From Tissierella sp. MB52-C2 (GTDB lineage Bacteria; Bacillota; Clostridia; Tissierellales; Tissierellaceae): a DNA stretch of 64,000 nucleotides. Shown here piece by piece: positions 17,353-51,500 of the stretch. Numbering within the stretch: position 1 is the stretch's first letter; each line of letters opens with the position of its first letter. Where the stretch lies: positions 1,960,643 through 2,024,642 of the forward strand of contig NZ_CP133261.1 of the NCBI RefSeq assembly GCF_030931715.1, in the 5' to 3' direction. The notes beneath the pieces are model-generated. The model had not been told where the DNA came from. It saw nothing but the letters and a program-made list of their open reading frames with translations, and searched no databases. The position numbers and the translations under genes were made by a program.

Positions 17353-17399
17353 ATTTGAACCTCTACTTTCTTATCCACTTATAATTGGTAAAATTAATT

Positions 17400-19529: not shown

Positions 19530-19572
19530 TTTTTCACCTCAGAAGTATTATTTCCTTTTAGCGAATATTAAT

Positions 19573-20103: not shown

Positions 20104-20139
20104 AGTCTTTCCTCCTTATATAATCTTTTAATAGATATA

Positions 20140-20937
20140 TTATTTACTAGTTATAAATAGAAGGTGGTTACTAGCTCCCAAAAATTCTGGTTTTTCACAG
20201 TAATAATAGTGATAATTTAGCCACTTATTATAGGTTTCATCATCCATATTATTTATATTATCTGCTAATAACTCACTTAGTCCATCTGTAGCAACCTCAT
20301 TATTAATTGTTAAACCTGAATCTCTTAATATTTGTCTACAATCATCTACTGTATGAAAAACAAATGGAAAATCTCTAACTTTAAAGGTATCGTGATTATA
20401 TGTATATCCAGTTAGAAAACTAGGATTGTAACACATGGTTTCAGTCGTAATCACCATATCATTGGAAATAAAGGCAAAGAACATTTTACCATTATCTTTA
20501 CAAACTCGCTTTACTTCTTCTATACATTTCATTCTGTCCCCAATTTTCTCTAAATGATATAATGGTCCAAAACATAATACTATATCGTAGGTTTTATCTT
20601 CAATCATAGATATATTCATTGCATTTCCTTGAAAAACTTCAAGTGACATTTCCTCGTTAATTTTTTCTTTAATCTGAGAAACATGACTTTCCACTAATTC
20701 AACTGCCGTTACTTGGAATCCATTTTTTGCGAAATATAAGCTATATTCTCCAGTACCAGCACCTAAATCCAATATTTTCGTATCTGGTTTAAGATATTTT
20801 TCAATCTGTCTTATGGTAGTTAAAAATTCAACTCTAGTTGCCTTAGTAGATAATCGTGTACTTTCATCAAAAATATTATAAATTGCTGACACTCTTTCTT
20901 CTTCATTTTTTATCTCAAATATATCTTCCATTCTCAA
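20140..20937 (-). CDS. Class I SAM-dependent methyltransferase.
   Basis: ILDLGAGTGEYSLYFAKNGFQVTAVEL is motif I of the Rossmann methyltransferase fold. Confidence 0.75.
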   Translation of the reverse strand: MRMEDIFEIKNEEERVSAIYNIFDESTRLSTKATRVEFLTTIRQIEKYLKPDTKILDLGAGTGEYSLYFAKNGFQVTAVELVESHVSQIKEKINEEMSLEVFQGNAMNISMIEDKTYDIVLCFGPLYHLEKIGDRMKCIEEVKRVCKDNGKMFFAFISNDMVITTETMCYNPSFLTGYTYNHDTFKVRDFPFVFHTVDDCRQILRDSGLTINNEVATDGLSELLADNINNMDDETYNKWLNYHYYYCEKPEFLGASNHLLFITSK

Positions 20938-21042
20938 GCTTAATCACTCCCTTTTTAATAGATTTAATTACAAAGATAAATATCATAATAATAAGTTTAT
21001 TTCCATTTATTATAAAACAGTAAGATTTCATTCTTACTGTTT

Positions 21043-22215: not shown

Positions 22216-22245
22216 TTTATCCCTCCAAATCTTATTTTAGATTAC

Positions 22246-23013
22246 TTACAGTTCTATAATTGAATTATTACATTTACAATTTTCTTGATTTAAATCACTT
22301 AAAAATACTTTAATAAATCCTTCTGTAATCTTTGCTTTACTTTTTTCTAATGCTCCTTGAATATCGTGTATGGCAATTTCTCCACACATTCCTGTACACC
22401 AATTCGTAATGATTCCCACTACTCCATAACACATACCTAATTCTTTTGCCAGTACTACTTCCGGCACATTAGTCATTCCTACTACATCTCCACCTAGATT
22501 CTTGTACATCTTTATTTCATGCTGTGTTTCAAATCTCGGGCCTTCAGTACATACATATACTGCCTCACCTTTTATATTTAATCCTATATCCCTAGCAGTT
22601 AGATAAAATTTCTCTCTTAATTTTTTACAATAGGGTTCACTCATATCCACATGCTTTACTGGCTCATCTTTTCCTTCAAAAAAAGTCATTGGTCTTAGTT
22701 TTGTAAAATCTATGAAATCTTTTATTAAAACAATATCTCCCAGTTCATAGTTTTCATTACAAGATCCCACTGCAGCTGTTGCATATATATATTTGATTCC
22801 CAATTGTTTTAGAGCCATTATATTTGCTCTATAGTTTATTAAATGAGGTGGTACAGAATGTTCCTTTCCATGCCTTGCCAAAAATACGATTTCTTCTCCA
22901 TTTATATTCAAAATATCTACTTCAACTTCACCGTATTTTGTATTTACTAATCTTTTTTCACTTATACTTCCTACATCATATACTCCCGTTCCTCCAATTA
23001 TAGCCTTTTCCAT
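22246..23013 (-). CDS. mtnP: S-methyl-5'-thioadenosine phosphorylase.
   Basis: MEKAIIGGTGVYD...ARHGKEHSVPPHLINYRANIMALKQLGIK matches the MTAP/PNP-family signature. Confidence 0.85.
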   Translation of the reverse strand: MEKAIIGGTGVYDVGSISEKRLVNTKYGEVEVDILNINGEEIVFLARHGKEHSVPPHLINYRANIMALKQLGIKYIYATAAVGSCNENYELGDIVLIKDFIDFTKLRPMTFFEGKDEPVKHVDMSEPYCKKLREKFYLTARDIGLNIKGEAVYVCTEGPRFETQHEIKMYKNLGGDVVGMTNVPEVVLAKELGMCYGVVGIITNWCTGMCGEIAIHDIQGALEKSKAKITEGFIKVFLSDLNQENCKCNNSIIEL

Positions 23014-23043
23014 ATTCTCACCTCTATAATTTATATTTAATTC

Positions 23044-24072
23044 TTATTTTAATTTCATAATATTCTCTTTATATGGAAGTCTAATAATTCCTTTTTCAGT
23101 TATTATTCCAGTTATATTCTCCCAAGGTGTAACATCAAATGCAGGATTATATACATCTATTCCTTCTGGAGCAATTCTTATTCCATCTATATGAGTTACT
23201 TCAGATATGTCTCTTTCTTCAATTTCGATTTCTTTACCTGTTTCTATATCAAAATCTATAGTCGTTGTAGGTGCTACTATATAAAATGGAACATTATATG
23301 TTTTAGCTATTACTGATAACATAAAAGTTCCTATTTTATTTGCAGTATCTCCATTAGTGGCGATTCTATCTGCTCCAACTAAGATTACATCTATTTTTCC
23401 ATCTCTTATTAAAGTTGCAGCCACATTGTCAGCTATTAATCTTGATGGAATTTCTTCCTGCACCAGTTCCCAAGCTGTTAATCTGCCTCCTTGAAGTCTA
23501 GGTCTTGTCTCATCTGCGTATACAAATATATTCTTTCCAGTATAGTGAGCTTCTCTAATTACTCCAAGAGCTGTTCCATAACCTACTGTTGCTAATGCTC
23601 CTGTATTACAATGAGTTAAAATAGTAGCATTTTCTTTTATTACTTCATTGCCATACTTTGCCATGATCTTATTTGTTTCTATATCTTCAGCAAGTATATT
23701 GTCTGCTTCCTCCTTTATCCTTTTATATAATTCATCTAAAGGTAGGTTCTTGTTGCTTTCTATTAAAACTCTCATTCTCTTAATTGCCCACATTAAATTT
23801 ACTGCTGTAGGTCTGGAATTACCTAGAAAAACTAAAGCTTCTTCCAGCTTTTTAAAGAATTCATCTTCTTTTAAGAACTCCTTCGCCGCCAATACTACTC
23901 CATATGCCGCTGTAGCTCCTATGGCTGGTGCTCCCCTGACTACCATATCTCTAATGGCAAATTCTACTTCTTTATAATCTTTACACTGAAATATTTCATA
24001 AATTCCTGGCAATTTTCTTTGATCTATTAAATATAATATATCATCTTTAAACTCTATGGTTTTTATCTCCAT
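23044..24072 (-). CDS. mtnA: S-methyl-5-thioribose-1-phosphate isomerase.
   Basis: eIF-2B-like isomerase fold with ...GAPAIGATAAYG...GADRIATNGDTANKIGT...YNPAFDVTP. Confidence 0.88.
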   Translation of the reverse strand: MEIKTIEFKDDILYLIDQRKLPGIYEIFQCKDYKEVEFAIRDMVVRGAPAIGATAAYGVVLAAKEFLKEDEFFKKLEEALVFLGNSRPTAVNLMWAIKRMRVLIESNKNLPLDELYKRIKEEADNILAEDIETNKIMAKYGNEVIKENATILTHCNTGALATVGYGTALGVIREAHYTGKNIFVYADETRPRLQGGRLTAWELVQEEIPSRLIADNVAATLIRDGKIDVILVGADRIATNGDTANKIGTFMLSVIAKTYNVPFYIVAPTTTIDFDIETGKEIEIEERDISEVTHIDGIRIAPEGIDVYNPAFDVTPWENITGIITEKGIIRLPYKENIMKLK

Positions 24073-24099
24073 TATTCTTCTCTCCCCTCTAAATCTAGT

Positions 24100-24750
24100 T
24101 TAATCTTTTTTCACCTGTCCATAGGTCTTAAATTTTTCAATCATTAAAGTCATCTCTTCTTCAGATAATATTACTGGCTCTCCTATAGCTTTAGTTCTAT
24201 AATATAATTCTGCTACATATTCAATTTCTTCAGTGATATTAAAAGCATTGGCTAAATCCTTTGAACCTGCTAAAAGTCCATGGTTGGCTAAAAGTACTGC
24301 ATATCTATCCTTCATAGCTTCAAAGGCATTTTCTGCTAACTCTTTAGTTCCATAGGTAGCATAATTTGCACATCTCACATCAAGCCCTGCTAATGCCACC
24401 ATATAATGTACTGGAGGCAATGACCAATTCAAACAAGCCAATGTAGTTGCATACATGGTATGAGTATGAATTATGGCATCTATATCATCTCTATTTTCAT
24501 AGAAAATCCTATGCATATCATATTCACTAGAAGGCTCTCTATGCCCATCTACTATATTTCCCTTTAAATTCATAACTACAATATCTTCCACACCTGTTTT
24601 AAAATAATCTATACCTGAGGGGGAAATAGCCATTAAGCTCTTCTCTCTATTATAAACACTTAAATTTCCACCTGTTCCTTTAGTAAGATTGGATGTAGCT
24701 AGCTTTTTCCCATATTCAACAATTAGCTTTTTTTCTTCTAACATTATCAT
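24100..24750 (-). CDS. Class II aldolase/adducin-family protein. It is either an Ald2 (MTRu-1-P aldolase) or an MtnB (dehydratase) candidate.
   Basis: 216 aa in the fuculose-aldolase-like family, with HTHTMYATTLA.... It sits immediately upstream of mtnA and mtnP. Confidence 0.65.
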   Translation of the reverse strand: MIMLEEKKLIVEYGKKLATSNLTKGTGGNLSVYNREKSLMAISPSGIDYFKTGVEDIVVMNLKGNIVDGHREPSSEYDMHRIFYENRDDIDAIIHTHTMYATTLACLNWSLPPVHYMVALAGLDVRCANYATYGTKELAENAFEAMKDRYAVLLANHGLLAGSKDLANAFNITEEIEYVAELYYRTKAIGEPVILSEEEMTLMIEKFKTYGQVKKD

Positions 24751-36203: not shown

Positions 36204-36821
36204 TTATGTTATTAAATTTGAATCTATAATAACATAATTTGCTCTATGAATATATAAACTCTTTCCATCTATATTTAATCTCGTCATCTTAGGCAAATTA
36301 TCTGGCACTGTTACATATACACTTTTACCTTGGTACACTCCTATTGGAATCCCCATTTGACTTGATATAATAATTGTTTTTTCCTTGCCAATTTTATTTT
36401 TCAAATCATTTATATATCTATCTAAGGGTACAAATCCACCACCTGATTTTACATTTATATCAGTTGGAACTTGGAATCCCTCTACCATATCTAGTCCATC
36501 TTCTGCAAAAATAACTGTATTACCAACTTGTAACATCTCATTTCCATTAATGGTTATCTCCAATACACTAGATCCAAATCCTGTAGATTCTAAGTCATTA
36601 TTAGCATCATTTTCAAATAGTCCTACTGTTATTTTACTCCCCTCTACTGAAAGGGTTTTGTTAGCATAGTGATCGTATGTGGATATATTAAAATGTACGC
36701 CAATCAAATCTCCTCTTATTGTGGCAAGTTTATCTCTAATTATGGCACATCCAGATAATCCCATAATTAAAAACCCTAAAACAATTGATAAAATCAATTT
36801 GCTATTTCTTTTATTTTTCAT
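36204..36821 (-). CDS. Lipoprotein, hypothetical.
   Basis: Signal peptide with an LSGC lipobox. It is the full-length copy of a duplicated gene. Confidence 0.6.
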   Translation of the reverse strand: MKNKRNSKLILSIVLGFLIMGLSGCAIIRDKLATIRGDLIGVHFNISTYDHYANKTLSVEGSKITVGLFENDANNDLESTGFGSSVLEITINGNEMLQVGNTVIFAEDGLDMVEGFQVPTDINVKSGGGFVPLDRYINDLKNKIGKEKTIIISSQMGIPIGVYQGKSVYVTVPDNLPKMTRLNIDGKSLYIHRANYVIIDSNLIT

Positions 36822-37999: not shown

Positions 38000-38410
38000 C
38001 ATCTTCTTTAGCTTATCTCACACCGTTACATATACACTTCTTCCTTGATATAATCCTATTAAAATTCCTCTAATAAATCTAGCCTGTCTTCTGCAAAACA
38101 GCTGTATTACTAACTTGCAACATCTTATTTCCATTAATGGTTATCTCCAATACACTAGATTCAAATCCTGTAGATTCTAAGCCATTATTAGCATCATTTT
38201 CAAGCAGCCCTACTGTTATTTTGCTTCCCTCTACTGAAAGGATTTTGTTAGCATAATGGTCATATGTGGATATATTAAAATGTACGCCAATCAAATCTCC
38301 TCTTATTGTGGCAAGTTTATCTCTAATTATGGCACATCCAGATAATCCCATAATTAAAAACCCTAAAACAATTGATAAAATCAATTTGCTATTTCTTTTA
38401 TTTTTCACGG
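38000..38410 (-). pseudogene. Truncated, decayed duplicate of the 36204-36821 lipoprotein gene.
   Basis: The first about 100 codons are more than 90% identical to 36204-36821. Relative to the full copy there is an internal deletion of about 120 bp plus a premature stop. DNA homology continues to about 38000. Confidence 0.7.
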
Positions 38411-38819
38411 TGGTCTCCTTTTATATTATTTTAGAATATTATATCATAATTCAATCATATAAGATTAATATAATATTAATATCAAGATATAGGAGATGAA
38501 AATTATTGATAGGATTATGCTAATACTTTTATTTATTGTTTCATCTGTATTTACCTATAGTTATCTAGTAAATAAATTTCTTCATCCTATCTCTATTATT
38601 TATTTGACATAGTCAATTGATATATTGACAATTATGGCAAAGTAAGAATATAATTCCAATTAATATTATATACTCTATCTTCTGTAATCTTTTATGACAG
38701 CATGATTACCATCTTATGGCCCTTTTATTATAGATTATTAAGTTCTCCAGATTACTTCCATTGGCATAAACATTGCATCTAATTGAATATATCAAATAAA
38801 TATGTAATGGAGTGATTCT

Positions 38820-39881
38820 ATGCAATTGCCTTCAATCTATGTAGATACTAAAAAAATTCAAAAGAATGCAGAGTTAGTTGTAAATATTTGCAAAAAATCT
38901 GGAATTGAAGTAATGGGTATTACCAAAGGAATTTGTGCATTTATTCCAGCAGTTAAAGCTATGTTAGATGGTGGTGTGCCAAAACTTGGAGACTCTCGAA
39001 TGAGCAATATCATAAGTATGAGAGATGCTGGAATAGATGTACCTATATACCTTATTCGAATCCCCATGATGGCAGAAGTCGAAAATGTAATTAAATTTAC
39101 TTATGGCAGTCTAAATTCCGAATTAACAGTAATAAAGGCATTATCGGAAAAAGCTGTTATCCTTAATAAAGTTCATAAGGTAATTTTGATGGTTGATGTA
39201 GGAGATCTAAGGGAAGGTGTACTTCCTGAAGATGTATTGGATATTGTTGAAAATATATTAGAACTCCCTAATATTGAGTTAGAAGGTCTTGGAACAAATG
39301 TAGGTTGTTATGGCGGTGTATTACCAAGTTATGAAAACACCAAAATATTAGTAGATTTAGCCATCAAAATCGAAAGCAAATATAAAATTCAATTAAAAAC
39401 TCTTTCAGGGGGCAGTACGGTTAATTTGGATTTACTAGATAATAGAAAAATGGCTTCAGGTATAAACCAATTACGTATAGGTGAAGCAATTTTACTTGGG
39501 ACTGATATTAAAACTCTTAAGCCTATTCCAGGAGCTGAAGTAAATACAATAGTCCTTAAGACTCAAGTAATAGAACTGAAGATAAAACCATCTCATCCTA
39601 TTGGGGAAATTGGAAGAGATGCTTTTGGCAAAGCAGTAAATTTTCAAGATAGAGGCAATAGAAAGCGGGCAATTATCGCCTTAGGTAAACAGGATTGTGG
39701 ATTAGATGGTATTTCACCTATAGACAGTTCTATAGAAATCTTAGGTGCAAGCAGTGATCATATGATTTTAGATGTAACAGATTGTAAGCAGGAAATCCAA
39801 GTAGGTTCAATAATTGAGTTTAATATAGACTATGGCGGTATGCTAGACCTTACAACATCAAAATATGTAGGAAAAAGCTAA
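38820..39881 (+). CDS. Fold-type III PLP enzyme of the alanine-racemase N-terminal domain family (ornithine racemase / YhfX-like).
   Basis: 353 aa. TIM-barrel racemase-like N-terminal domain with the Lys in MGITKGICAF. Confidence 0.5.
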   Translation: MQLPSIYVDTKKIQKNAELVVNICKKSGIEVMGITKGICAFIPAVKAMLDGGVPKLGDSRMSNIISMRDAGIDVPIYLIRIPMMAEVENVIKFTYGSLNSELTVIKALSEKAVILNKVHKVILMVDVGDLREGVLPEDVLDIVENILELPNIELEGLGTNVGCYGGVLPSYENTKILVDLAIKIESKYKIQLKTLSGGSTVNLDLLDNRKMASGINQLRIGEAILLGTDIKTLKPIPGAEVNTIVLKTQVIELKIKPSHPIGEIGRDAFGKAVNFQDRGNRKRAIIALGKQDCGLDGISPIDSSIEILGASSDHMILDVTDCKQEIQVGSIIEFNIDYGGMLDLTTSKYVGKS

Positions 39882-39904
39882 AAGGCAATACCTTGCCTTT
39901 TAGC
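39877..39904. terminator. Bidirectional terminator between the racemase-like gene and nhaC.
   Basis: gctaaaaggcaa-tacc-ttgccttttagc: a perfect 12-bp stem that overlaps the racemase stop codon. Confidence 0.7.
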
Positions 39905-39911
39905 TTTTCAA

Positions 39912-41372
39912 TTATTCTGATACGGCTATCTCTTTTTTGCCTTTTAGTTTTACTTGTGGTTCCCTTGGTACGCCAAATAATGGTATAAACTTATCAGCTC
40001 CTGTTAATGTAAGTAGAAGTATAGATACAACTGCTATTATACTCATGTAGTTATATTTTATAATATCACCAAAAGTAAATGTATGAAGTGGGTATATAGA
40101 ACTAGCTATAGAGAGAAAATATACAACATAACAATGCCATGGTACAAATTGAGCAGAATAAACACCCATTGCATCAGATAAAGTGGCATTTCTAAGGCGT
40201 AACTTATACATATCTTCTTCACTGGCTTCTACATTCTCATCAGTCATGCTTTTAAGCATTGGCCCAATAGTGACAATTTGTGCCATCTCATCTGCTAAAG
40301 CTACATTACCAAATATACACAGTATACCATTGTAGAACATTAATTGTTTTACATTTCTCGATATTTTCATTATAAATCTTGATAATGGCTCAAATGCATT
40401 CATCATACCCATAACAGCTCCAAAACCAACAGCCCATAGCATCATTGATACAGAATTATTACCGGCATCTGAGAATCCTGTATATAATAGATCACTTAAA
40501 GTCATAAAGTCAATAGTCTTAGCCACACTGCCCAGTATAAAAGCTCCAATCATTCCTATAAGTAAACATACAATTGTGGGAAGTCCTTTAAATGCAGCAA
40601 CAAGAACAATGACTAAAGGTATGGCCATATACAGTGGCACACCATCTTTAACTTGATTCAAAAGAGCAACTGCTGATGGTCTTTCTGCCTCTAAAGTTAA
40701 CCAAGCTTCTTCCGGTATTTGGTTGATTGCTTCTGCCGCGCTAATGGTGTTATCTGGAAGCTGCATTCCAACAGCTGTTACATATATTAATATGGCTGCT
40801 AAAATTAAACATAATACGGACCATACCCCCTGATGTCTTATTCTATCTACGATTCCTACTTCCTGAATTCCTGAACTCACTATTGTGGTATCGGAAATTA
40901 ATCCTATATTATCTCCAAAGCAAGATCCTCCAACTATGGAAGCTAGTGTAAGTGCAACACTTCCTCCTACAATATGGTTTGCCCAGAGAAAAATCGGTGC
41001 ACATGCCGCAAAAGTTCCCCATGAAGTACCAGTTGCAACTGATAAAACGCATGTAACCAAGAATCCAACAAGTGCAACTGTTTTACTTGATAGTCCCAAT
41101 TGTAGCGATATTCTTATTATTGATGCTCCTACACCAGTAGCCATAAACACTTCAGCCATAGCGTATGAAAACATCAATATGAAATAGACTTCCATTACAG
41201 AACCTGCACCATCATAAACTACTTTAGTTACATCTTTAAACTTGCGTTTTTCAACTAGCATAGCTATTATAATACCATATATCGTTGCATAACTAGCAGC
41301 AACTTTTACATCTATACCTGATAATAAAGCAGTTACCATAACAATTATTGGTGAAAATTTAATAAAAATCAT
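39912..41372 (-). CDS. nhaC: Na+/H+ antiporter, NhaC family.
   Basis: 486 aa, about 12 TM helices, with the NhaC-type profile. Confidence 0.7.
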   Translation of the reverse strand: MIFIKFSPIIVMVTALLSGIDVKVAASYATIYGIIIAMLVEKRKFKDVTKVVYDGAGSVMEVYFILMFSYAMAEVFMATGVGASIIRISLQLGLSSKTVALVGFLVTCVLSVATGTSWGTFAACAPIFLWANHIVGGSVALTLASIVGGSCFGDNIGLISDTTIVSSGIQEVGIVDRIRHQGVWSVLCLILAAILIYVTAVGMQLPDNTISAAEAINQIPEEAWLTLEAERPSAVALLNQVKDGVPLYMAIPLVIVLVAAFKGLPTIVCLLIGMIGAFILGSVAKTIDFMTLSDLLYTGFSDAGNNSVSMMLWAVGFGAVMGMMNAFEPLSRFIMKISRNVKQLMFYNGILCIFGNVALADEMAQIVTIGPMLKSMTDENVEASEEDMYKLRLRNATLSDAMGVYSAQFVPWHCYVVYFLSIASSIYPLHTFTFGDIIKYNYMSIIAVVSILLLTLTGADKFIPLFGVPREPQVKLKGKKEIAVSE

Positions 41373-41496: not shown

Positions 41497-42615
41497 TTAG
41501 TAACCTACTGAAACCTTATACATTATGTTCATTCCATATCCAATTTTAATCCTATAGTATCCTTGCAGGCTTTTATCAAGAGCTTCATTATCTGTATATA
41601 TTAATAGTGGATTTCCTTTTAATTCAATTATCTTTGAGTTTGGAGAAATTATTATGATATTGTCTTTTTTTATTTTTTCAATAACCTTTGAACTAATTTG
41701 TTGATTACCTCTTCCCAAAAGATATCCTTGCCCTCCTGTGGGAGTGATAATTAACTTCCCTGTGCCATTTCCTAATATATTTAATATATCTTTTTCATTA
41801 CAATCCAACTTAACTATGGATTTATTCTTAATAATATCTACACCTAATAATGAATTAGGCAAAATAAGTTGATCCATAATGGCTCTTGTAGTGGTGCCTG
41901 GACCTATTATATAATATACCTCTTCTACCATATTATCTATTATGTCTAATGCAATTGCCTTTTGGCTCTCCTCTTCCCCTAAAGGAGTAGGTGCCTTTTT
42001 GTTTTGTAACCATTCTTTTTTATAAGGTACCTTCAAATATCCAAAGAGTTCTGTCCTAACCTGATTATTTCTAAAGGCCTCTTCATCTATATCTACGACT
42101 TCCTCTTCCTTTATATGAAGGCTACTATCTTTCAAATACATTAAAGCTAATTCTCCCGCTAATTCTGGTGTATTTCCATAGACAGGAGAGTGAATCTTCA
42201 CCCCTGCAGGAATTCCTACTGTAACAACTCTATTCTCCACAGCATTATAGATATCCCTTGCAGTACCATCCCCACCTACAAAAATAATTAAATCTACACC
42301 CCTTTCTTCCATTATTTTAGCTGCATTTAATGTATCTAAAAAACCAGTTATGTTATTTGATTTGTGTACTATTTCGTAATTAAAGCCTAAAGTTCTACAT
42401 TGATTTTCACCCATATCTGAGGAAGAAGTTAAGATCAATAACTCTTTCTTTATTGGTTCTAATTTTCTTAATGCTTTTATGGCTTTGTTGGGGGCTTCTT
42501 TAATAGCCCCCAGTTGTATGGCCTTATTTAAAGTCTCTATACCATCTGTACCTTTTAGTCCAACTCTACCACCCATTCCAGCTATGGGATTAATTATTAG
42601 ACCTATGATTTTCAT
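41497..42615 (-). CDS. ATP-NAD kinase (NadK/DAGK_cat-like) family protein of unknown specificity.
   Basis: GGDGT motif (LIIFVGGDGTARD); 372 aa. It is the last gene of the sigma-54 operon. Confidence 0.5.
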   Translation of the reverse strand: MKIIGLIINPIAGMGGRVGLKGTDGIETLNKAIQLGAIKEAPNKAIKALRKLEPIKKELLILTSSSDMGENQCRTLGFNYEIVHKSNNITGFLDTLNAAKIMEERGVDLIIFVGGDGTARDIYNAVENRVVTVGIPAGVKIHSPVYGNTPELAGELALMYLKDSSLHIKEEEVVDIDEEAFRNNQVRTELFGYLKVPYKKEWLQNKKAPTPLGEEESQKAIALDIIDNMVEEVYYIIGPGTTTRAIMDQLILPNSLLGVDIIKNKSIVKLDCNEKDILNILGNGTGKLIITPTGGQGYLLGRGNQQISSKVIEKIKKDNIIIISPNSKIIELKGNPLLIYTDNEALDKSLQGYYRIKIGYGMNIMYKVSVGY

Positions 42616-42630
42616 ACTATCACTTCCATA

Positions 42631-44193
42631 TTAATCTTCTTTTGTCTTTCTAAGATAAACTCTCCAAGTTGGACACCATTTTTCTGGATCATCTAGGCTT
42701 GTTTCATCTACTTGATGAATAGTACTATTATGTGGTGCATTATGGATTATTTCAGGATTCTCATATGCCTCATCAAATATGTGATGAATTGTCTTTATAT
42801 ATTCATCTAAATCATCTTTAGATGGTGTTTCGGTAGGTTCCAAAGTAAGTGGTTCTGGGATATAGTAGGGATGGTGACTTGACCAAATATGCATACCGAA
42901 ATCCATTATCCTCCTAGCTAAGTCCCCTGATGTAATACCTGTATCCTTAGTTATTTCTTCCATAGTATATCTAGCTTGTTCAATCCTTTGAGTATCTACT
43001 TTATATGGCACTGTTAACCCTTTATACTCTAATAATTTATTTATTAGATAAATATTATTAAGAGATGCAATCTTAGCCACTTCATAGAGTCCCTCAGCCC
43101 CTAAACTCATAATCCAAGCATATGCCTTAAGCACAACTTGGGGACTACCTTGGAATGACTTTACCTTTCCAATGCTGTTTTTCAAATCATAGTCTAAGAA
43201 ATATTTATCTCCATCAAATTCTACTAAGGGTTTTGGTAAATAATCTCTCAATTCTTCAATTACTCCTAATGCACCAGAACCTGGACCACCACATCCATGA
43301 GGTGTTCCGAAAGATTTGTGAAGATTGAAGTAACACATATGAAAACCTGCTTCCTTAGCTCTTGCTATTCCAAAGAGTCCATTGGCATTAGCTTGATCAT
43401 AACAATTTAACCCACCAGCCTTGGTGATTAAATCCGTGAACTCCTTGATTCGAGGATTAAAAATTCCAGTATCCTCAGGATTAGCTACTACGAAAGCAGC
43501 TGTTCTTTCACTAACTGCAGCTTTGAATGCTTCGTAATCAGGTTGACCATTTTCATCTGTCATAATTGTAATTATTTTATATCCCTTTAATGCTGGTGCA
43601 GCAGCATCTGAAGGGTGAGAGTATACGGTTGTTATTATTTCATCTCTCTTATCTTCTTCTCCCCTCAATCTATGATACATTCTAACAATGGACGCCATAG
43701 ACATAGTTGCCTGGGATCCTCCACCTGGCTGGAAGCTGAAATATTTCATACCTGATATTTCTCTCATCATTAAATCTGTTTTATATATTATCTCCAATAT
43801 CCCTTGAACAGTGCTTTTATCTTGTAATGGATGCAAAGCTGTCATCTTTTCATTATTTGCTATTTTATCGTTAATTTTAGGATTATATTTAACCGTACAG
43901 GTCCCTTGTCCGATTTCAATATTAACATCTCCACCTAATGTTTCTTGTGATAGTCTCAAATAGTGCATTAATACCCTTTTTTGATTTATCTCTGGCAAGT
44001 TAGGTAATCCATTTCTTCTCATTTTGGAAGGAATTTTAGATAATCCATCTCCAACTTGCTTTACTATATCTGCTTCTGCTTTTGGCACTAAGACCCCTCT
44101 CTCACCCTTACGACTTAATTCAAATATTATTGGCTCATTCCATCTTGCTTGGTGAAAATCTCTAACCTTAGAATTTCTAACTATTCGCTTCAT
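42631..44193 (-). CDS. gcvPB: Glycine dehydrogenase (decarboxylating) subunit 2-like PLP enzyme.
   Basis: CTVKYNPKIN motif. PLP-Lys region SFQPGGGSQAT...HKSFGTPHG. 520 aa. Confidence 0.75.
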   Translation of the reverse strand: MKRIVRNSKVRDFHQARWNEPIIFELSRKGERGVLVPKAEADIVKQVGDGLSKIPSKMRRNGLPNLPEINQKRVLMHYLRLSQETLGGDVNIEIGQGTCTVKYNPKINDKIANNEKMTALHPLQDKSTVQGILEIIYKTDLMMREISGMKYFSFQPGGGSQATMSMASIVRMYHRLRGEEDKRDEIITTVYSHPSDAAAPALKGYKIITIMTDENGQPDYEAFKAAVSERTAAFVVANPEDTGIFNPRIKEFTDLITKAGGLNCYDQANANGLFGIARAKEAGFHMCYFNLHKSFGTPHGCGGPGSGALGVIEELRDYLPKPLVEFDGDKYFLDYDLKNSIGKVKSFQGSPQVVLKAYAWIMSLGAEGLYEVAKIASLNNIYLINKLLEYKGLTVPYKVDTQRIEQARYTMEEITKDTGITSGDLARRIMDFGMHIWSSHHPYYIPEPLTLEPTETPSKDDLDEYIKTIHHIFDEAYENPEIIHNAPHNSTIHQVDETSLDDPEKWCPTWRVYLRKTKED

Positions 44194-44217
44194 TCAATCA
44201 ATCCTTTCTATAGATTA

Positions 44218-45618
44218 TCATTCTATGATTTCTCTAATAGCCTTCACTAGATTATCTATATCTTCCTTTAAGTGAATTTCAGTAACACAATATAAAGCAC
44301 ATTGCCCTAATTCAGGAAATTCCTCAGATAAGTCTTTTCCACCAAATATGCCTTTAACTAATAGTTCCTCATTTATTTCTTCGACAGTTTTCCCCGTGTG
44401 ATTAAAATCTACAACAAATTCCTTAAATCCAATATTGTTAAATCTAGAACCTTTTACACCCTTTAATTTAGATAGTTCTTCAATAGCATATAAAGATTTT
44501 TGTACAATATTTTCTCCTAGTTCATACATTCCTTTAGGCCCCATCAGAGATAAATAAACTCCAGCAGTAATACCCAGTAAAGCTGTTTGAGTACCTACAT
44601 ATTCCTTTCCCTTTTCCCTTAAGTTACCAAAGGAAGTTCTTTCATAGGCTATATCTCCAAATCCATATTCTCCTTCTTTAATGGTAGGAGCTATACCAAA
44701 TAATCTAGATGGAAACTCCATTACAAACCTTTCTTCGTCCTTAGTGGATATAAACCCTGACTGATTACCACCATAATTCATATGCATACCTAGAGGTTGA
44801 AGATCTCCACAGATTATATCAGCGCCATAATGGGATGGAGGAGCTAACACGCCAAGGCTACTTGGATCAACACCTACTACCAAAATTGCACCTCTATCAT
44901 GGGTTATTTTTGAGATTGCTTCCCCTTGATCTTCCAAAAATCCTAAATATGATGGATTTTCAAAGTATACTGCAGCAGTATTATTGGAAATGTTTTTCTT
45001 TAAATCCTCTAAGTCCATTCTCCCTGTTTTTTTATTGAAATCAATTAATTTAATTTCAACTCCTGGATCACAATAATTTTGTATTATCATTAGCCTATCA
45101 GGGCAAATAGTTCCTACAACTAAGGCTTCTGATCTCCTAGTAATTCTTGAAGCCATTCTAAGGGATGTAGCAGCAGCTTGAGCCCAATCAAATGTCGGAA
45201 CATTAACCACATCCATATCTAATAGTTCTGCTACTAGAGATTCGTATTCGAATAGTGTTTGAAATCTTCCATGGTCATTATAGGGTTCACCTGCATACCC
45301 TGTTAAAAATTCAGCTCTACTATTTATTTCATCACATACGGCAGGTACATAATGTTGCCAACATCCTGCTCCTAAAAAATTTATATATTCATTACTTGAA
45401 ATATTTTTATTCATTATTTTATTTATAGATCTTTTAAGCTCATATTCTGACTCAAAAGCTTTTGGTAAATTCAAAGCCTTCTTTAATTTTAATTCTTCTG
45501 GTATTTCTACATGCAAATCGTCTAAAGATTCCAATCCTATTTCCCTTAACATTTCTTGCTGAACTTCTAAATTAGAGTTTGGAATATAAGGATGATTTTT
45601 AAATCCACGAATTGTCAT
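44218..45618 (-). CDS. gcvPA: Glycine dehydrogenase (decarboxylating) subunit 1-like.
   Basis: 466 aa. N-terminal pattern ...YIPNSNLEVQQEMLREIGLESLDDL as in GcvPA. It directly precedes gcvPB. Confidence 0.75.
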   Translation of the reverse strand: MTIRGFKNHPYIPNSNLEVQQEMLREIGLESLDDLHVEIPEELKLKKALNLPKAFESEYELKRSINKIMNKNISSNEYINFLGAGCWQHYVPAVCDEINSRAEFLTGYAGEPYNDHGRFQTLFEYESLVAELLDMDVVNVPTFDWAQAAATSLRMASRITRRSEALVVGTICPDRLMIIQNYCDPGVEIKLIDFNKKTGRMDLEDLKKNISNNTAAVYFENPSYLGFLEDQGEAISKITHDRGAILVVGVDPSSLGVLAPPSHYGADIICGDLQPLGMHMNYGGNQSGFISTKDEERFVMEFPSRLFGIAPTIKEGEYGFGDIAYERTSFGNLREKGKEYVGTQTALLGITAGVYLSLMGPKGMYELGENIVQKSLYAIEELSKLKGVKGSRFNNIGFKEFVVDFNHTGKTVEEINEELLVKGIFGGKDLSEEFPELGQCALYCVTEIHLKEDIDNLVKAIREIIE

Positions 45619-45639
45619 ACTTCTACCTCCTAATTTTTA

Positions 45640-46419
45640 TTATGCAATCCCTCCACCATCAACAACCAAAGCTGTACCAGTAATCCATGCGGATAAATCA
45701 CTACATAAGAATAGTACTGCTTTAGCTATATCTAGTGGCTCTCCTAACCTTTCTAAAGGTCTTCCCTTAGCTGAATCAACTAAAAATTTATCTATTTCTG
45801 ATTTAAAACCTAATTGTTCTCCTTCACTTCTAAGCATAGCAGTATCTGTATCTCCTGGATTAATTGAATTAACCCTAATATTTTGTCCCCCATGATCTAT
45901 TGCCATAGCACGAGTTAAGTTTACAATCCCACCCTTTACTGCACAGTATGCAGCTGCCTTATCTCCACCTTTCAAACCCCAGCCTGACCCAGTATTTACT
46001 ATGCTTCCTCCACCACCTTTTGCCATTACAGGTATGGTGTACTTGGAAAGTAGATATGTTCCCTTAAGTCCTACATCAAGGACAAAATCCCACTCAGCTT
46101 CAGTCAAATCTACAACTGTCTTTCTTACTGTAACACCTGCATTATTAAACAATATATCAATTCTACCAAATTCCCTTTCTATTGATTCAATAGTAGTTTT
46201 ACACTCTTCATTATTGGTTACATTACATTTTTTAAAGATGGCAAAATTACCTTCATTTATTATTTCCATAACTGCTTTTTCTCCACTTTCCTGATTTACA
46301 TCAAGTAGCACAACTTTTGCACCATATTCTGCCAACAATTTTCCAGTGGCTAATCCTATTCCAGAAGCCCCACCTGAAACAATAGCTACCCTACCTTTTA
46401 AATCTAATGGATTATTCAT
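45640..46419 (-). CDS. SDR family oxidoreductase (classical short-chain dehydrogenase).
   Basis: TGGASGIG cofactor motif and YxxxK active site (YCAVKGG). It is the first gene downstream of the sigma-54 promoter. Confidence 0.8.
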   Translation of the reverse strand: MNNPLDLKGRVAIVSGGASGIGLATGKLLAEYGAKVVLLDVNQESGEKAVMEIINEGNFAIFKKCNVTNNEECKTTIESIEREFGRIDILFNNAGVTVRKTVVDLTEAEWDFVLDVGLKGTYLLSKYTIPVMAKGGGGSIVNTGSGWGLKGGDKAAAYCAVKGGIVNLTRAMAIDHGGQNIRVNSINPGDTDTAMLRSEGEQLGFKSEIDKFLVDSAKGRPLERLGEPLDIAKAVLFLCSDLSAWITGTALVVDGGGIA

Positions 46420-46465
46420 CTTCTTCCCCCTTTTTTAATCTTCCTTTACATTCAACAATATATAC

Positions 46466-46483
46466 TTGCATAAAGTATGCCAA
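46466..46483 (-). promoter_or_regulatory. Sigma-54 (-24/-12) promoter.
   Basis: Minus strand reads TTGGCAT-ACTTT-ATGCA, with GG and GC 12 nt apart (consensus TGGCAC-N5-TTGCA). It lies about 45 nt upstream of the SDR start and divergent from the sigma-54 activator gene. Confidence 0.6.
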
Positions 46484-46639
46484 TAAGTTAATAAAATAAT
46501 CTTTTTCATAAAAACCCCATGATTACAGGAAATATTCAGAATATTATATATTATCCATTGCCTTGTCAAGCTAATATGATATAATTTAATTGTCTTCAAA
46601 GGCAAATATTAACATATTATTGCCAACTATGACAAAGAG

Positions 46640-48361
46640 GTGATAGATATGAATTTGAAAAATATTAAACCTAGTTTGGAAAACATAATATCTACTATGG
46701 CTAATCTAACAAATATGGAGTATGCCGTATTTAATACCAACTCAGAATTAGTAAGTAGCACACAAATCTATTTGCAAAGAAAAGGAAGAAATGTTCACTC
46801 AGCTTCAATAGAAGAAGTTTTGAACCTAGGAAATGTAATAGTAAATAAGCCTGGCTTAATGAACTCATGTATAGGATGTAGATTTGTAAATAATTGTCCT
46901 TCAACTATAGAAGTTTTGTCTTGTATTAAATTAAATGGAATTCCTGTAGGTGTTTTAAGCCTTACTTCCTTTTCCCAAGAAGGACATACTTTGATTGAAG
47001 AAAATATACGTAACTATATGAATGTTTTAGAAAATACTTCACAACTGATTTCTATGTTTGCTCAAAATGAAATTTCAAATAATAATATTCAAATGTTACA
47101 TAAAGTAATTCACGAGATAACTAAAGAAAACAATTCTAGTTATATAATAATAGACAAAAATGGCCTTCTGGTACACTGGGATCAAGAATTTGAAGACCTA
47201 CTTTCCTATTGTAATTTATACACTCAAACTATAGATATTATTTTCCCTGAAAGCATTTGTAATTGGATATTGAGTACTAGTAAACCTAGAAAAAAATATT
47301 CTGTTAGTGAAAGTTTTCAAGGAATTATTCATATTACACCTTTAATAATAGAATTTGATATCATTGGCTATTTTATTAAATTGGAAAAAGATGTTGGTCC
47401 ATCTAAACAATATTTACATCAAGATTATTTAAATTCTATTATTACTAATGATTACAAAATCAATAATATAAAGAATAGAATTAGAAAATTATCAACATCA
47501 TCTTCTTCAGTTTTAATTACTGGAAAAACTGGTACTGGTAAGGAGTTGATAGCCAAGGCTATTCATTACACAAGTAATAGATCTGATAATCCTTTTGTCT
47601 CAATAAACTGTGCAAATATACCTGACTCTCTATTTGAATCTGAGCTTTTTGGGTACGAAGAAGGAGCTTTTACTGGCGCTAAGAAAGGTGGCAAATTGGG
47701 AATTTTTGAGATGGCTAACGGTGGAACAGTGTTCTTAGATGAAATAGGAGAATTACAAGAACATTTACAGGCTAAACTCCTAAGAGTACTTCAGGAAAGT
47801 ACTATACAAAGATTAGGAAGTGTTACCCCTATATCTGTGGATATTAGGGTTATTGCTGCAACTAATCAAGATTTAGAATCTATGATGGAAGAAAATAGGT
47901 TTAGAGAGGATTTGTTCTATAGAATAAATGTTATACCTATTTGCTTACCTCCACTAAATGAAAGAATAGATGATATAGAGTTACTTACTAGACATTTTAT
48001 AGATAAATACAATAAAAAGCTTTTTAAAAATGTCAAAGATATTTCAGAAGAAGCCTTAGATATTTTAAAATCCTATCCATGGCCTGGAAATATAAGAGAA
48101 CTTGAAAATGCCATAGAATACGCAATCAATATGGAAGAAGCTGATATGATTGAAATTGATAATCTTCCTGATAGAATATCTAAATTTACTGTAAAAGAGA
48201 GATTTGATTTTAAAGAATCTATAGCACAAAAGGAAATGGATTTGATTGTTAGTACATTAAATAAGTATGGTTGGAATTTAAGTGGAAAGGAAAAAGCCTC
48301 AGAAGAATTAGGGATTAGTATTAGAACCCTATATAGAAAACTATCCAGCTTAGAAAAATAA
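46640..48361 (+). CDS. Sigma-54-dependent transcriptional activator (bacterial enhancer-binding protein).
   Basis: Central AAA+ sigma-54 interaction domain with GKTGTGKE Walker A, GAFTGA and the ESELFGYEEGAFTGA motif. C-terminal Fis-type HTH. About 290-aa N-terminal sensory region of unknown type. Confidence 0.88.
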   Translation: MIDMNLKNIKPSLENIISTMANLTNMEYAVFNTNSELVSSTQIYLQRKGRNVHSASIEEVLNLGNVIVNKPGLMNSCIGCRFVNNCPSTIEVLSCIKLNGIPVGVLSLTSFSQEGHTLIEENIRNYMNVLENTSQLISMFAQNEISNNNIQMLHKVIHEITKENNSSYIIIDKNGLLVHWDQEFEDLLSYCNLYTQTIDIIFPESICNWILSTSKPRKKYSVSESFQGIIHITPLIIEFDIIGYFIKLEKDVGPSKQYLHQDYLNSIITNDYKINNIKNRIRKLSTSSSSVLITGKTGTGKELIAKAIHYTSNRSDNPFVSINCANIPDSLFESELFGYEEGAFTGAKKGGKLGIFEMANGGTVFLDEIGELQEHLQAKLLRVLQESTIQRLGSVTPISVDIRVIAATNQDLESMMEENRFREDLFYRINVIPICLPPLNERIDDIELLTRHFIDKYNKKLFKNVKDISEEALDILKSYPWPGNIRELENAIEYAINMEEADMIEIDNLPDRISKFTVKERFDFKESIAQKEMDLIVSTLNKYGWNLSGKEKASEELGISIRTLYRKLSSLEK

Positions 48362-48655: not shown

Positions 48656-51067
48656 CTATTTTACAACTATGTTATATATTTTTCCTGGAACAAATATTTC
48701 CTTTACTATATTCTTTCCTTCTAGGAATCTATTAATATTTTCATCAGCCTTTGCTTTTTCTCTTGCTATATCTTGAGATTCGTCAACACTAATTTGTATT
48801 GTACCTCTTACTTTGCCATTTACTTGAACTGGTAGGTCTATTACTTTATCTTTAGTTTTTTCCTCATTAAATTTTGGCCAAACAGTTTCATGTAGATAGC
48901 CTTCTAATTCTAATATTTCCCACATCTCTTCAGTTATATGAGGAGCTACTGGATTTAGTAGTATTATAAATGTTCTCAAATCCTCTTTTGTTATACTACC
49001 ATGGTCATTAAATTCATTTAATAGAGCCATTAAAGCTGCAATCCCTGTATTAAACTTTAATGTTTCAAAATCTGCCGATACTTTTTTAATAGTTTTGTGA
49101 ATACTACTTTCTAGTTCCTTAGTATAGCCTTCACCATCTACTAAAATCTCTTGAAGTTTCCATACTCTTTCAAGGAATCTTCTACAGCCTTTTACTCCAT
49201 TTTCTGACCAAGGTACGCTCTTTTCAAAATCCCCAATAAACATTTCATAAGTTCTAAGAGTATCTGCACCATAGTCTCTTACTATATCATCAGGATTTAT
49301 TACATTTCCTCTAGATTTTGACATTTTTTCATTATTGTCTCCTAGAATCATGCCATGGGAAGTTCTCTTTGCATATGGCTCTGGCGTAGGTACTACTCCA
49401 ATATCATATAAGAATTTATGCCAGAATCTTGAATATAGTAGGTGAAGGGTTGTATGTTCCATTCCACCATTATACCAATCTACTGGTAACCAATAATTTA
49501 AAGCTTCTTGAGAAGCAAATTCTTCTTCATTACATGGATCGATATATCTTAGGAAATACCAAGAAGACCCTGCCCATTGAGGCATCGTATCAGTTTCTCT
49601 ATGAGCTTTTCCACCACATTTTGGACAAGTAGTTTCTACCCAATCTGTAATATTTGCAAGAGGTGATTCCCCATTATCTGTCGGCTCATAGTTTTCTACA
49701 TCTGGTAACATAACTGGTAATTCCTTCTCTGGAACAGGTACCCAGCCACATTCATCACAGTGTACTAGAGGAATTGGCTCTCCCCAATATCTTTGTCTAG
49801 AGAATACCCAGTCTCTTAATTTAAAGTTTACTTTTCTAACACCTAGATTTTTTTCTTCCAACCATTTAATCATATATTCTTTAGCTTCTTTTACTTCCAT
49901 TTCATTGATGAAATCAGAATTTATAACTATACCTTTTTCAGTATCTGTAAAGGCTTCCTTTTCTATATCTCCACCTTTTATTACTTCAATTATAGGAAGG
50001 TTAAATTTCTGAGCAAATTCCCAGTCACGAGTATCATGTCCTGGTACTGCCATTATTGCACCTGTACCATAGCTCATTAAAACATAGTCAGAAATCCAAA
50101 TAGGAATTTCTCCGCCAGTAGCAGGATTAATTGCTGTTAACCCTTTTATTTCTATACCTGTTTTATCCTTAGATAATTCTGTTCTTTCAAAATCAGATTT
50201 TTTACCTACTTCATTTTGGTATTCATGGATTTCATCTAAGTTTGTTATTTCTTCCTTATATTTTTCTATTAAAGGATGTTCCGCTGCAATAACCATATAT
50301 GTTGAGCCAAATAATGTATCTGGTCTTGTAGTAAATACTCTTAGCTTATCTTCTTTTCCTGCAATTTGAAAATCTACCTCTGCTCCTTCAGATTTACCAA
50401 TCCAGTTAGTTTGCTGAGCCTTTACTCTTTCAATATAATCTACCTTATCTAAATCACTAATTAGTCTATCTGCATATTCTGTTATTTTTAGCATCCATTG
50501 GTTTTTAACTTTTCTAACTACTTCTCCGCTACATCTTTCGCAGGTTCCTTGAATAACTTCTTCGTTTGCTAAGCCTACTTTACAAGATGGACACCAGTTA
50601 ATAGGCATTTCTTGTTTATATGCCAATCCTTTTTCATATAGTTTTAGGAATATCCATTGAGTCCATTTATAATAATGTGGATCTGTAGTATTTATTTCCC
50701 TTGACCAATCAAAGGAAAATCCTATGGATTTTAACTGTGATTTAAATTTTGCTACGTTTCTTTCTGTAACTGTTTCTGGATGGATTTTATGTTTAATTGC
50801 ATAGTTCTCCGTTGGTAATCCAAAGGCATCCCATCCCATTGGATATAATACATTATATCCTTCAAGTCTTCTCTTTCTAGACACAATGTCTAATGCAGTA
50901 TATGGTCTTGGATGACCTACATGCAGTCCTTCTCCTGATGGATAAGGAAATTCTACTAAAGCATAAAACTTCGGCTTATTACTTTCATTAGATGCCTTAA
51001 AGGGCTGTCTTTCATCCCAAATATCATGCCACTTTTTTTCAATTTCATTTGGTCTATACTCTCTCAT
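48656..51067 (-). CDS. leuS: Leucyl-tRNA synthetase.
   Basis: HIGH region ([17 protein letters not shown]), KMSKS, the CP1 editing domain, and a length of 803 aa. Confidence 0.95.
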
Positions 51068-51273: not shown

Positions 51274-51500
51274 TAAAAAAACCTTCCATCTCTAAATAGA
51301 GACGAAAGGTAAATTCCGCGGTACCACTCTTATTGATATTTCTATCCACTCAAAATATAACGGCATCAAACCGACTAAGGCTACAATTCACCTTAATAAC
51401 TCATGGACGAGTTCAGTTTTGACCAATACTATCTTTCACCAGCCGATAGTTCTCTACAATTGGTATGGAACCTACTACTTCCATTCATAGTATATATTAA
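51274..51500 (-). promoter_or_regulatory. T-box riboswitch leader for leuS.
   Basis: Minus strand contains the T-box sequence AGAGUGGUACCGCGG (plus 51316-51330). It is immediately followed by the terminator cctttcgtctc-tattta-gagatggaagg plus UUUUUUU (plus 51274-51309). An AGAGA element lies in the upstream stem-I region. I did not confidently assign the specifier codon. Confidence 0.75.

Follow-up and report, generated by a model that had tools for sequence, protein, structure and literature searches.

What reaction is catalyzed by a glycine decarboxylase-like P-protein that is encoded apart from the other components of the glycine cleavage system? The question is raised by a locus of Tissierella sp. 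MB52-C2, which we analyzed within a 64,000-nucleotide (nt) stretch of DNA (contig NZ_CP133261.1, positions 1,960,643 to 2,024,642), hereafter called the window. On its minus strand, genes for a short-chain dehydrogenase/reductase (SDR), a GcvPA-like protein, a GcvPB-like protein, an NadK/AcoX-like protein, and an NhaC-family transporter follow one another in this order, with a racemase-like gene nearby and the gene for a sigma-54 enhancer-binding protein (EBP) divergent from the SDR gene. This set of genes and domains, as listed in a preliminary description of the same DNA, was reproduced in full by scans of open reading frames (ORFs) and with hidden Markov models. The triad of the SDR and the α-like (PA) and β-like (PB) subunits appears to be a neofunctionalized offshoot of the glycine cleavage P-protein that has kept the pyridoxal phosphate (PLP) machinery, and 5-hydroxylysine is a candidate for its substrate.

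The P-protein pair and its active site

The α-like subunit (44218-45618, minus strand) and the β-like subunit, which is the PLP-binding catalytic one (42631-44193, minus strand), are homologous to GcvPA and GcvPB of Thermus thermophilus (PDB accession number 1WYT) (E = 8e-60 and 2e-85, respectively), and the closest relatives of the β-like subunit, from Tissierella, are 87-88% identical to it. In profile and structure searches of the kind suggested in the preliminary description, both subunits scored above the NCBIfam cut-offs (GcvPA, 478 bits vs. 364; GcvPB, 535 bits vs. 441), with the canonical substrate-side motifs replaced. This pair lacks a model of its own in NCBIfam release 20.0 (June 2026) and falls under the GcvPA and GcvPB equivalogs, and every source-named relative listed in the public homology search is annotated GcvPB.

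The active site was compared in an alignment of 76 family members with the solved P-proteins of Thermus, Synechocystis, and human, to which PDB entry 9uz6 was added for the β-subunit; the roles of the cofactor-contacting residues of the P-protein follow PMC7850488, and the active-site residues of human GLDC follow PMC7259800. The PLP contacts are retained, i.e., Lys293 (in the sequence NLHK), His292, Asn290, Asp266, Thr98 (Ser to Thr), and Thr343 of the α-subunit, and they are invariant in 76 to 77 sequences including the window copy. Among the canonical invariant positions, 38 of 99 in the α-subunit and 57 of 126 in the β-subunit are kept, and a further 29 and 25, respectively, are swapped for another residue that is conserved within the family. 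The canonical motifs YTPYQ(P/A)E(V/I)SQG in the α-subunit and HAPT(M/V)S(W/F)P and YDGAN in the β-subunit are absent, and their replacements are invariant within the family. The α-loop YTPYQPEVSQG becomes Y(A/G)G-EPY(E/N)D(H/F)G (YAG-EPYNDHGR in the window); the second tyrosine, equivalent to human Tyr164, is deleted, and QPEVSQ is exchanged for EPY(E/N)D(H/F). In the β-subunit, HAPT(M/V)S(W/F)P is replaced by HxW(T/S)SHHP and YDGAN by YDQAN, so that Trp897, Ser896, Pro893, and Gly728 of the human pocket correspond to His441, His440, Trp437, and Gln267, respectively. A conserved cofactor site combined with a rebuilt substrate pocket is the signature of a changed substrate, and by this comparison the pair is very probably not a glycine decarboxylase. 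The preliminary description had counted glycine among the candidate substrates of a decarboxylation route; with its substrate-side loops remodeled, the enzyme is unlikely to use glycine, and the reaction may not be a decarboxylation at all.

A search for GcvPA-like proteins among 1.84 billion representative sequences brought up a radiation of clusters (proteins P0241-P0390) that are 40-61% identical to the window PA and have shortened, variable loops (YxG-xxYxDxG) in the region aligned to PA residues 103-125. For clusters with the canonical YTPYQPE loop, identity to the window PA does not exceed 41%. From this pattern, P-protein paralogues appear to have radiated more widely and to differ in specificity, and all of them are probably annotated GcvPA.

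The partners of a glycine cleavage system were sought on the same DNA. No GCV_T, GCV_H, or dihydrolipoamide dehydrogenase Pfam family occurs among the window ORFs of at least 100 amino acids (aa), which bears out the earlier remark that T-, H-, and L-protein genes are lacking in the window, and no such gene was recognized beside any of 76 related loci, some of whose neighbors are unannotated. No glycine riboswitch was found in the related loci scanned or in the window, whose Rfam matches were limited to a fluoride riboswitch and the T-box leader of leuS. Glycine reductase (grd) genes are found close to the operon in Crassaminicella. The preliminary description had allowed for a split gcv locus; the conserved SDR-PA-PB(-NadK-like) unit is very probably not one.

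Conservation of the gene unit

We scanned one genome per GTDB species for the family-specific peptides EIGQGTCT and YDQANANG, and at least 593 genome stretches carry these motifs. The best 80 of these stretches, with at least 59% identity to the window protein, come from Bacillota (Tissierellia, Clostridia, Oscillospiraceae, and the Bacilli Neobacillus, Paenibacillus, Brevibacillus, and Bacillus), Desulfobacterota, Aminicenantes, Trueperella, and the Asgard groups Heimdall- and Promethearchaeota. Neighborhoods were counted in the 76 non-redundant loci. PA and PB are adjacent in all of them, and the SDR adjoins PA-PB in 68 of the 76. PB is followed by the NadK-like gene in 39 loci; these are all of anaerobes, Asgard archaea among them, and none is of Bacilli. 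About 33 loci have a divergent EBP gene. SDR, α, and β thus make up the invariant unit, to which the NadK-like gene and sigma-54 control are lineage-specific additions. The comparison across genomes proposed in the preliminary description thus places SDR-PA-PB in several phyla and corrects that description in two respects: the module, taken to be clostridial and of a sigma-54 type, extends to aerobic Bacilli, Desulfobacterota, Trueperella, and Asgard archaea and is often controlled there by two-component/AraC systems, and the NadK-like protein, taken to be a core member, lies outside the invariant core.

The SDR (45640-46419, minus strand), the first gene of the operon, encodes a classical dehydrogenase with a TGxxxGIG-type motif (GGASGIG), Asp40 after β2, and a catalytic YxxxK. 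An aspartate after β2 in SDRs indicates a preference for NAD+. Some loci hold a further SDR. In Asgard, Aminicenantes, and a Firmicutes metagenome-assembled genome (L064, L067, L078-L081, L087, and L089), a second, distant SDR (about 110-130 bits) precedes the usual one, and in Oscillospiraceae (L056, L058, and L074), an extra SDR follows the NadK-like gene; these enzymes may handle another stereoisomer.

Sigma-54 promoters and the activator

The SDR operon is preceded on the minus strand by a near-consensus -24/-12 element, TTGGCATACTTTATGCAA (46483 to 46466), 47 nt upstream of the SDR ATG; the core found by the pattern scan, TGGCATACTTTATGCA (46467-46482, minus strand), is conserved in relatives. 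The element TTGGCAT-N5-ATGCA of the preliminary description is thus real (TGGCAT-N5-ATGCA), and the transcription start predicted from it falls at the same position, about 46456. The pattern TGGCAYN5WTGCW has two matches in the 64 kb of the window against 0.18 expected, both at this cluster. The second, TGGCATAAACATTGCA (38762-38777, plus strand), lies 42 nt upstream of the racemase ATG, so the racemase gene is a predicted member of the same regulon as the SDR operon. Across genomes, a promoter score of at least 13.5 of 14.5 before the first operon gene was obtained in 24 of the 32 loci that have a divergent EBP and in 1 of the 47 that lack it. When five Tissierellales loci were aligned, the element proved invariant between diverged flanks. 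This co-variation of the element with the divergent EBP is the strongest evidence for the sigma-54 control that had been proposed, and we are highly confident that the operon is a conserved, sigma-54-controlled one. The gene for sigma-54 itself, rpoN, does not lie in the window. In loci without the EBP, the search for riboswitch or leader control turned up only an unrelated FMN riboswitch.

The EBP (46640-48361, plus strand) is an AAA+ protein with a GAFTGA motif (in the sequence EEGAFTGA), a Sigma54_activat domain (E = 1.4e-69), and a Fis-type helix-turn-helix (HTH_8). Its best NCBIfam match is PrdR, at 386 bits, far under the cut-off of 795. The N-terminal region of about 265 aa matches no Pfam family even at E = 1, in keeping with the uncharacterized sensor domain noted earlier. 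The start codon is more probably ATG 46649, behind GAGGTG, than GTG 46640. The EBP group and its target operon are absent from the 39 groups of a Clostridiales sigma-54 regulon study, as far as Table 1 and the main text of that study go (PMC6615313).

Candidate sites for the activator lie upstream of both promoters. The intergenic region 46540-46640 (minus strand) holds TTGTCA, TTGGCAA, and TTGACAAGGCAA repeats that are partly conserved in the Tissierella loci L011 and L012; the TTGCC/GGCAA repeats of the preliminary description are therefore present as TTGNCA/TGNCAA-type repeats, at about 46540-46640 rather than at 46500-46630. At the racemase promoter, the candidate site is TTGACATAGTCAA ... 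TTGACAATTATGGCAA (38604-38640, plus strand), a 13-mer class common to both promoters. A TTGWCATAGTYRR element followed by TTGACAA..GGCAA stands about 155 nt upstream of both -24 boxes; this pattern of TTGWCATAGTYRR and 13-mer was derived post hoc, and the TTGWCATAGTYRR and TTGACAA..GGCAA repeats are candidate activator sites. The racemase-side site is overlapped by a perfect sigma-70-like TTGACA-18-TATAAT (38625-38654, plus strand, 12/12 matches), and the SDR-side site is overlapped by a sigma-70-like hexamer pair (46569-46541, minus strand, 10/12 matches).

As a separate observation, Microaceticoccus formicicus (CP143259; L002) has a second sigma-54 EBP gene immediately after the racemase, followed by genes for an SSF transporter, a creatininase, and an M28 peptidase (15364-21560), a putative separate sigma-54 catabolic unit.

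Gene context and the substrate

In anaerobes, the triad is accompanied by transporters that take amino acids or carboxylates (the NhaC family, the tripartite ATP-independent periplasmic [TRAP] system DctPQM, AA_permease, a polar amino acid ATP-binding cassette [ABC] system with SBP_bac_3, and DcuC); an Orr-like racemase, peptidases of the M20/M28 type, and an Amidohydro_3 enzyme are further companions. The operons of Bacilli and Trueperella consist of an AraC-type response regulator (RR-AraC) and a histidine kinase, a sugar-type CUT1 ABC system, a glycoside hydrolase (GH) 63-like enzyme, SDR-PA-PB, another CUT1 ABC system, and a GH2 enzyme, with gaps of tens of nt between the genes. In L052, L054, and L055, for example, the order is RR-AraC, substrate-binding protein, permease, permease, GH63-like enzyme, SDR, PA, PB, substrate-binding protein, permease, permease, and GH2. 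A GH2 β-galactosidase was found in 18 loci, a GH63/MGH1-like glycosidase in 12, and CUT1 ABC permeases in 23; in Trueperella, a gene for galactose-1-phosphate uridylyltransferase (GalT) then follows the operon. The solved relatives of the GH63-like enzyme are hydrolases of α-glucosides and α-mannosides.

This context of glycosidases and transporters points to a substrate that has a primary amine, a carboxylate, and a hydroxyl group and that occurs as a β-galactoside extended by an α-linked hexose; the amine must be primary because of the PLP chemistry. Collagen carries galactosyl-β-O-hydroxylysine (Gal-Hyl) and glucosyl-α1,2-galactosyl-β-O-hydroxylysine (Glc-Gal-Hyl). To our knowledge, 5-hydroxylysine is the sole compound that combines the amine and the carboxylate with a Glc-Gal-decorated hydroxyl group. 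The two ABC systems and two glycosidases of the operons match the two glycosides, the module is present in, among others, C. collagenovorans and Hathewaya proteolytica, which are degraders of collagen and protein, and the pairing of a racemase with an NhaC-family carrier, like that of orr and nhaC, suits a basic amino acid. From the gene context, we consider the chances about even that the substrate is 5-hydroxylysine, free or as Glc-Gal-hydroxylysine. Two other kinds of substrate were rejected. Ornithine and lysine, considered by analogy with orr-nhaC, have no hydroxyl group for the SDR to oxidize and do not fit the glycosidase context; glycosides of glycerol or glycerate, considered because GH63-like relatives hydrolyze glucosylglycerate, offer no amine to a PLP enzyme.

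A variant of the operon is found on Tissierellales metagenome contigs (L007-L009, 4876-17433), in which the EBP gene is divergent from PA-PB-NadK-like. Downstream lie genes for another SDR, which scores only about 133 bits against that of the window, and for a D-2-hydroxyacid dehydrogenase, a class I/II aminotransferase, DcuC, and an Amidohydro_3 enzyme. The aminotransferase and the D-2-hydroxyacid dehydrogenase are compatible with the formation of 2-oxoglutarate and 2-hydroxyglutarate from a glutamate product.

Transporter, racemase, and NadK-like protein

The NhaC-family membrane protein (39912-41372, minus strand) scores 72 bits against the TIGR00931 cut-off of 370 and matches only the broad Pfam family PF03553. 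The gap between the NadK-like and NhaC genes is 124 nt and contains no terminator-like site. NhaC-family genes were labeled in 14 loci (clusters of 10 and 4, the second mixed); elsewhere the slot is taken by TRAP, AA_permease, polar amino acid ABC (SBP_bac_3), or DcuC transporters. With such exchangeable partners, the protein is more probably a substrate importer than the Na+ exporter suggested in the preliminary description. The racemase (38820-39881, plus strand) is a fold-type III PLP enzyme (Ala_racemase_N) that reaches 433 bits with the Orr model NF040742, under the cut-off of 480, and is a close relative rather than an equivalog of Orr. It is co-operonic with NhaC in L002, L031, L056, and L058, and it probably epimerizes the imported amino acid at C2. 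The racemase gene converges on the NhaC gene, and a 16-bp hairpin between the two (39873-39908, no strand) is probably a bidirectional terminator that closes both units.

The NadK-like protein (41497-42615, minus strand; 372 aa) has the fold of NAD and diacylglycerol (DAG) kinases. The search proposed earlier for this protein found the NAD kinase domains (PF01513 and PF20143) and the GGDG motif (FVGGDGTARD), and brought neither an NadK equivalog model in NCBIfam at E ≤ 1e-3 nor a significant sequence match in the PDB. Its AlphaFold model (mean predicted local distance difference test, pLDDT = 83) is closest to the DgkB DAG kinases, weakly (template modeling [TM] score = 0.23-0.32), and matches the NAD kinase 1SUW with an E value of only 0.03. 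Relatives are annotated only as "ATP-NAD kinase family protein." The protein presumably resembles the AcoX family and is taken here as accessory.

Proposed pathway and alternatives

The explanation that we prefer is a substrate-inducible sigma-54 catabolic regulon with cleavage of 5-oxolysine by the P-like enzyme, and as a whole we hold it to be evenly poised between right and wrong. The substrate, the order of the steps, and the bond cleaved are proposed here on the gene content, promoters, conservation, and pocket remodeling described above. The EBP would sense the substrate via its N-terminal domain and switch on two sigma-54 promoters, one for the genes from the SDR through the α-like, β-like, and NadK-like proteins to NhaC and the other for the Orr-like racemase. 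5-Hydroxylysine released from collagen or gelatin would be imported by the NhaC-family carrier, and the racemase would adjust the configuration at C2. The SDR would then oxidize the 5-hydroxyl group with NAD+ to 5-oxolysine, whose H2N-CH2-CO-R end would mimic glycine (H2N-CH2-CO-OH). NAD+-dependent 5-hydroxylysine dehydrogenases that yield 5-oxolysine have been described as AzpJ (PMC11973848). In the P-like enzyme, PLP would form an aldimine with the C6 amine and the C5-C6 bond would be broken as the counterpart of glycine decarboxylation, which would leave the same aminomethyl-PLP carbanion. One product would be a glutamate-level C5 acyl unit; the other would be either released as methylamine or handed on, as an aminomethyl group, to a lipoyl carrier. 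In the pocket, the acidic residues and the invariant His440-His441 would suit a diamino substrate. The NadK/DAG kinase-fold protein would serve as an accessory, probably in an ATP-linked step needed only in anaerobes. Cleavage of the C5-C6 bond is put forward tentatively, as a somewhat unlikely part of the scheme, and retro-aldol cleavage of hydroxylysine itself is possible.

Several points weigh against this explanation. Both subunits exceed the GcvPA and GcvPB equivalog cut-offs, and the Crassaminicella operon lies near glycine reductase genes. The substrate is proposed from genomic context alone, and the action of the GH63-like enzyme on Glc-Gal-Hyl is presumed. The SDR is likened to AzpJ by the proposed reaction alone, and 5-oxolysine cyclizes spontaneously (PMC11973848). 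Cleavage of a C-C(=O)R bond, unlike decarboxylation, needs a nucleophile (water, phosphate, or a thiol), for which no partner was identified; an attack on the C5-C6 end alone leaves the racemase without an explanation; and the NadK-like protein, the main unexplained part, has no defined step. The sigma-70-like hexamers upstream of both sigma-54 promoters may make these possible dual promoters.

A first alternative is that the module follows the same logic on another hydroxylated amino compound. This could be a different acid with a vicinal amino alcohol, serine or threonine freed from glycopeptides, or some glycosylated amino acid, for example of the hydroxy-ornithine type. The SDR would form an α-amino ketone or aldehyde, which the P-like enzyme would decarboxylate or cleave. 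The context demands just an amine, a carboxylate, and a glycosylatable hydroxyl group, members of the GcvPA-like radiation with their variable loops may take different substrates, and a specificity of the GH63-like enzyme for Glc-Gal-Hyl is a presumption. On the other hand, simple routes for serine and threonine are already ubiquitous, hydroxyproline, as a secondary amine, is ill-suited to PLP aldimine chemistry, and the pair of α-glycosidase and β-galactosidase fits Glc-Gal-Hyl best. The Orr-like racemase and NhaC also mirror orr-nhaC of the ornithine operon, as given in the main text of PMC6615313, and so point to a basic amino acid. We regard another compound as unlikely, while giving it real weight.

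A further possibility keeps hydroxylysine and changes the chemistry: the NadK/DAG kinase-fold protein would phosphorylate the 5-hydroxyl group, the P-like enzyme would act as a phospho-lyase to give 2-aminoadipate semialdehyde, and the SDR would oxidize the aldehyde or its cyclic form. The animal route is indeed a kinase followed by a PLP lyase (HYKK/PHYKPL), kinases of the NadK/DAG kinase fold phosphorylate hydroxyl groups and the nearest solved folds are DAG kinases, and the aminotransferase and 2-hydroxyacid dehydrogenase of the variant operon would suit 2-aminoadipate equally. However, the kinase-like gene is missing in all the Bacilli, Trueperella, and Aminicenantes operons that keep SDR-PA-PB, so it would not belong to the core chemistry unless an unlinked kinase substitutes, and semialdehydes are normally oxidized by aldehyde dehydrogenases, not by SDRs; this scheme is improbable.

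Finally, a true GcvPA/GcvPB of a split glycine cleavage system, with the genes gcvT, gcvH, and lpd at other sites and those for the SDR and the NadK-like protein as passengers, would explain the equivalog scores, the public GcvPB names, the intact PLP lysine and cofactor contacts, and the grd genes of the one Crassaminicella genome, but it is very improbable against the replacement of motifs on the substrate side that do not vary between bacteria and human, an SDR adjacent in 68 of the 76 loci across phyla, a triad embedded in glycoside utilization operons of Bacilli, which normally have a separate riboswitch-controlled gcvT-PA-PB operon, and, within the limits of the scans given above, the lack of T, H, and L genes and of glycine riboswitches beside the loci.

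For the preferred explanation, cleavage of 5-oxolysine, a wider statement can be made at less than even confidence: possibly, bacteria and Asgard archaea share a widespread, unrecognized pathway for hydroxylysine and its Glc-Gal glycosides that uses a new PLP-dependent cleavage of 5-oxolysine, perhaps feeds the lipoyl/folate C1 pool, and belongs to a larger mis-annotated radiation of P-paralogues. Full-text literature searches found no paper linking gcvPA/PB-like genes with an SDR, an NadK-like gene, or hydroxylysine; the earlier view of an undescribed amino acid module agrees with this result. We know of no genes assigned to the bacterial breakdown of hydroxylysine, Gal-Hyl, or Glc-Gal-Hyl. 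The module is a concrete candidate of three to five genes for the bacterial breakdown of hydroxylysine and collagen glycosides, and the proposed chemistry, if true, would be a type of reaction new to the P-protein fold. Annotation as glycine cleavage can also distort metabolic reconstructions, such as those of Asgard metabolism, Stickland models, and the reductive glycine pathway.

Other features of the window

Two DUF5052 ORFs lie between the racemase promoter region and unrelated genes; one is full-length (36204-36821, minus strand), and the other (38079-38408, minus strand) covers the N-terminal half only and may be a remnant. A methionine salvage-like cluster (21043-24750, minus strand) encodes a Cys/Met PLP enzyme (methionine γ-lyase-like), a PNP_UDP_1 phosphorylase, an IF-2B-family isomerase (MtnA-like), and a class II aldolase; a set of IF-2B, Cys_Met_Meta_PP, and Aldolase_II genes resembling this cluster adjoins the EBP gene in the Schnuerera locus L010. 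The fluoride riboswitch (16352-16410, minus strand) is located directly upstream of a Na_H_Exchanger-family gene (15115-16293, minus strand), not of crcB. The T-box leader (51295-51497, minus strand; 131 bits) is upstream of the leucyl-tRNA synthetase gene leuS (48656-51067, minus strand).

Comparison with known systems

The P-protein of T. thermophilus has homologous α- and β-subunits with the same PLP lysine and cofactor contacts, and the carbanion chemistry is probably the same. In the present pair, by contrast, the loops are rebuilt, no T, H, or L gene is nearby, an SDR is coupled to the enzyme, and the context is the catabolism of imported amino acids or glycosides.

AcoX of the acetoin dehydrogenase operon acoXABC is likewise an accessory with the NAD kinase fold, encoded in an operon under sigma-54 and EBP control beside a two-subunit enzyme that makes a cofactor-bound carbanion. 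The partner in our locus is a PLP enzyme instead of a thiamine pyrophosphate-dependent E1, and no E2 or lipoyl gene is adjacent. AcoX has no known function (PMC10107126), and the locus described here gives these long-unexplained NAD kinase-fold proteins a second genomic context.

The ornithine Stickland operon ord-ortBA-oraSEF-orr-nhaC is controlled by OrdR and sigma-54 (Nie et al. 2019, PMC6615313). As far as the main text of that study describes it, it shares with our locus the sigma-54/EBP control, the anaerobic Bacillota host, and the combination of an Orr-type racemase with an NhaC-family carrier, and its OrtAB, which carries out a PLP-dependent C-C cleavage of an amino ketone, can be likened to the reaction proposed for the P-like enzyme. 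On the same description, the two differ in that no aminomutase, Ord, or OrtAB is encoded here and the racemase remains under the Orr cut-off (433 vs. 480 bits).

AzpJ, from the biosynthesis of alazopeptin and 6-diazo-5-oxo-L-norleucine (DON), resembles our system, by reaction alone, in the step proposed for the SDR (PMC11973848). It is biosynthetic and occurs in actinomycetes and Pseudomonas, and its product goes to diazotization rather than to cleavage.

Hydroxylysine catabolism in animals, by hydroxylysine kinase and 5-phosphohydroxylysine phospho-lyase, has the same presumed substrate and brings together a kinase and a PLP enzyme at the C5-C6 amino-alcohol end. The animal enzymes belong to protein families unrelated to those encoded here, and in our loci it is the kinase-like gene that is dispensable and the SDR that is obligatory.

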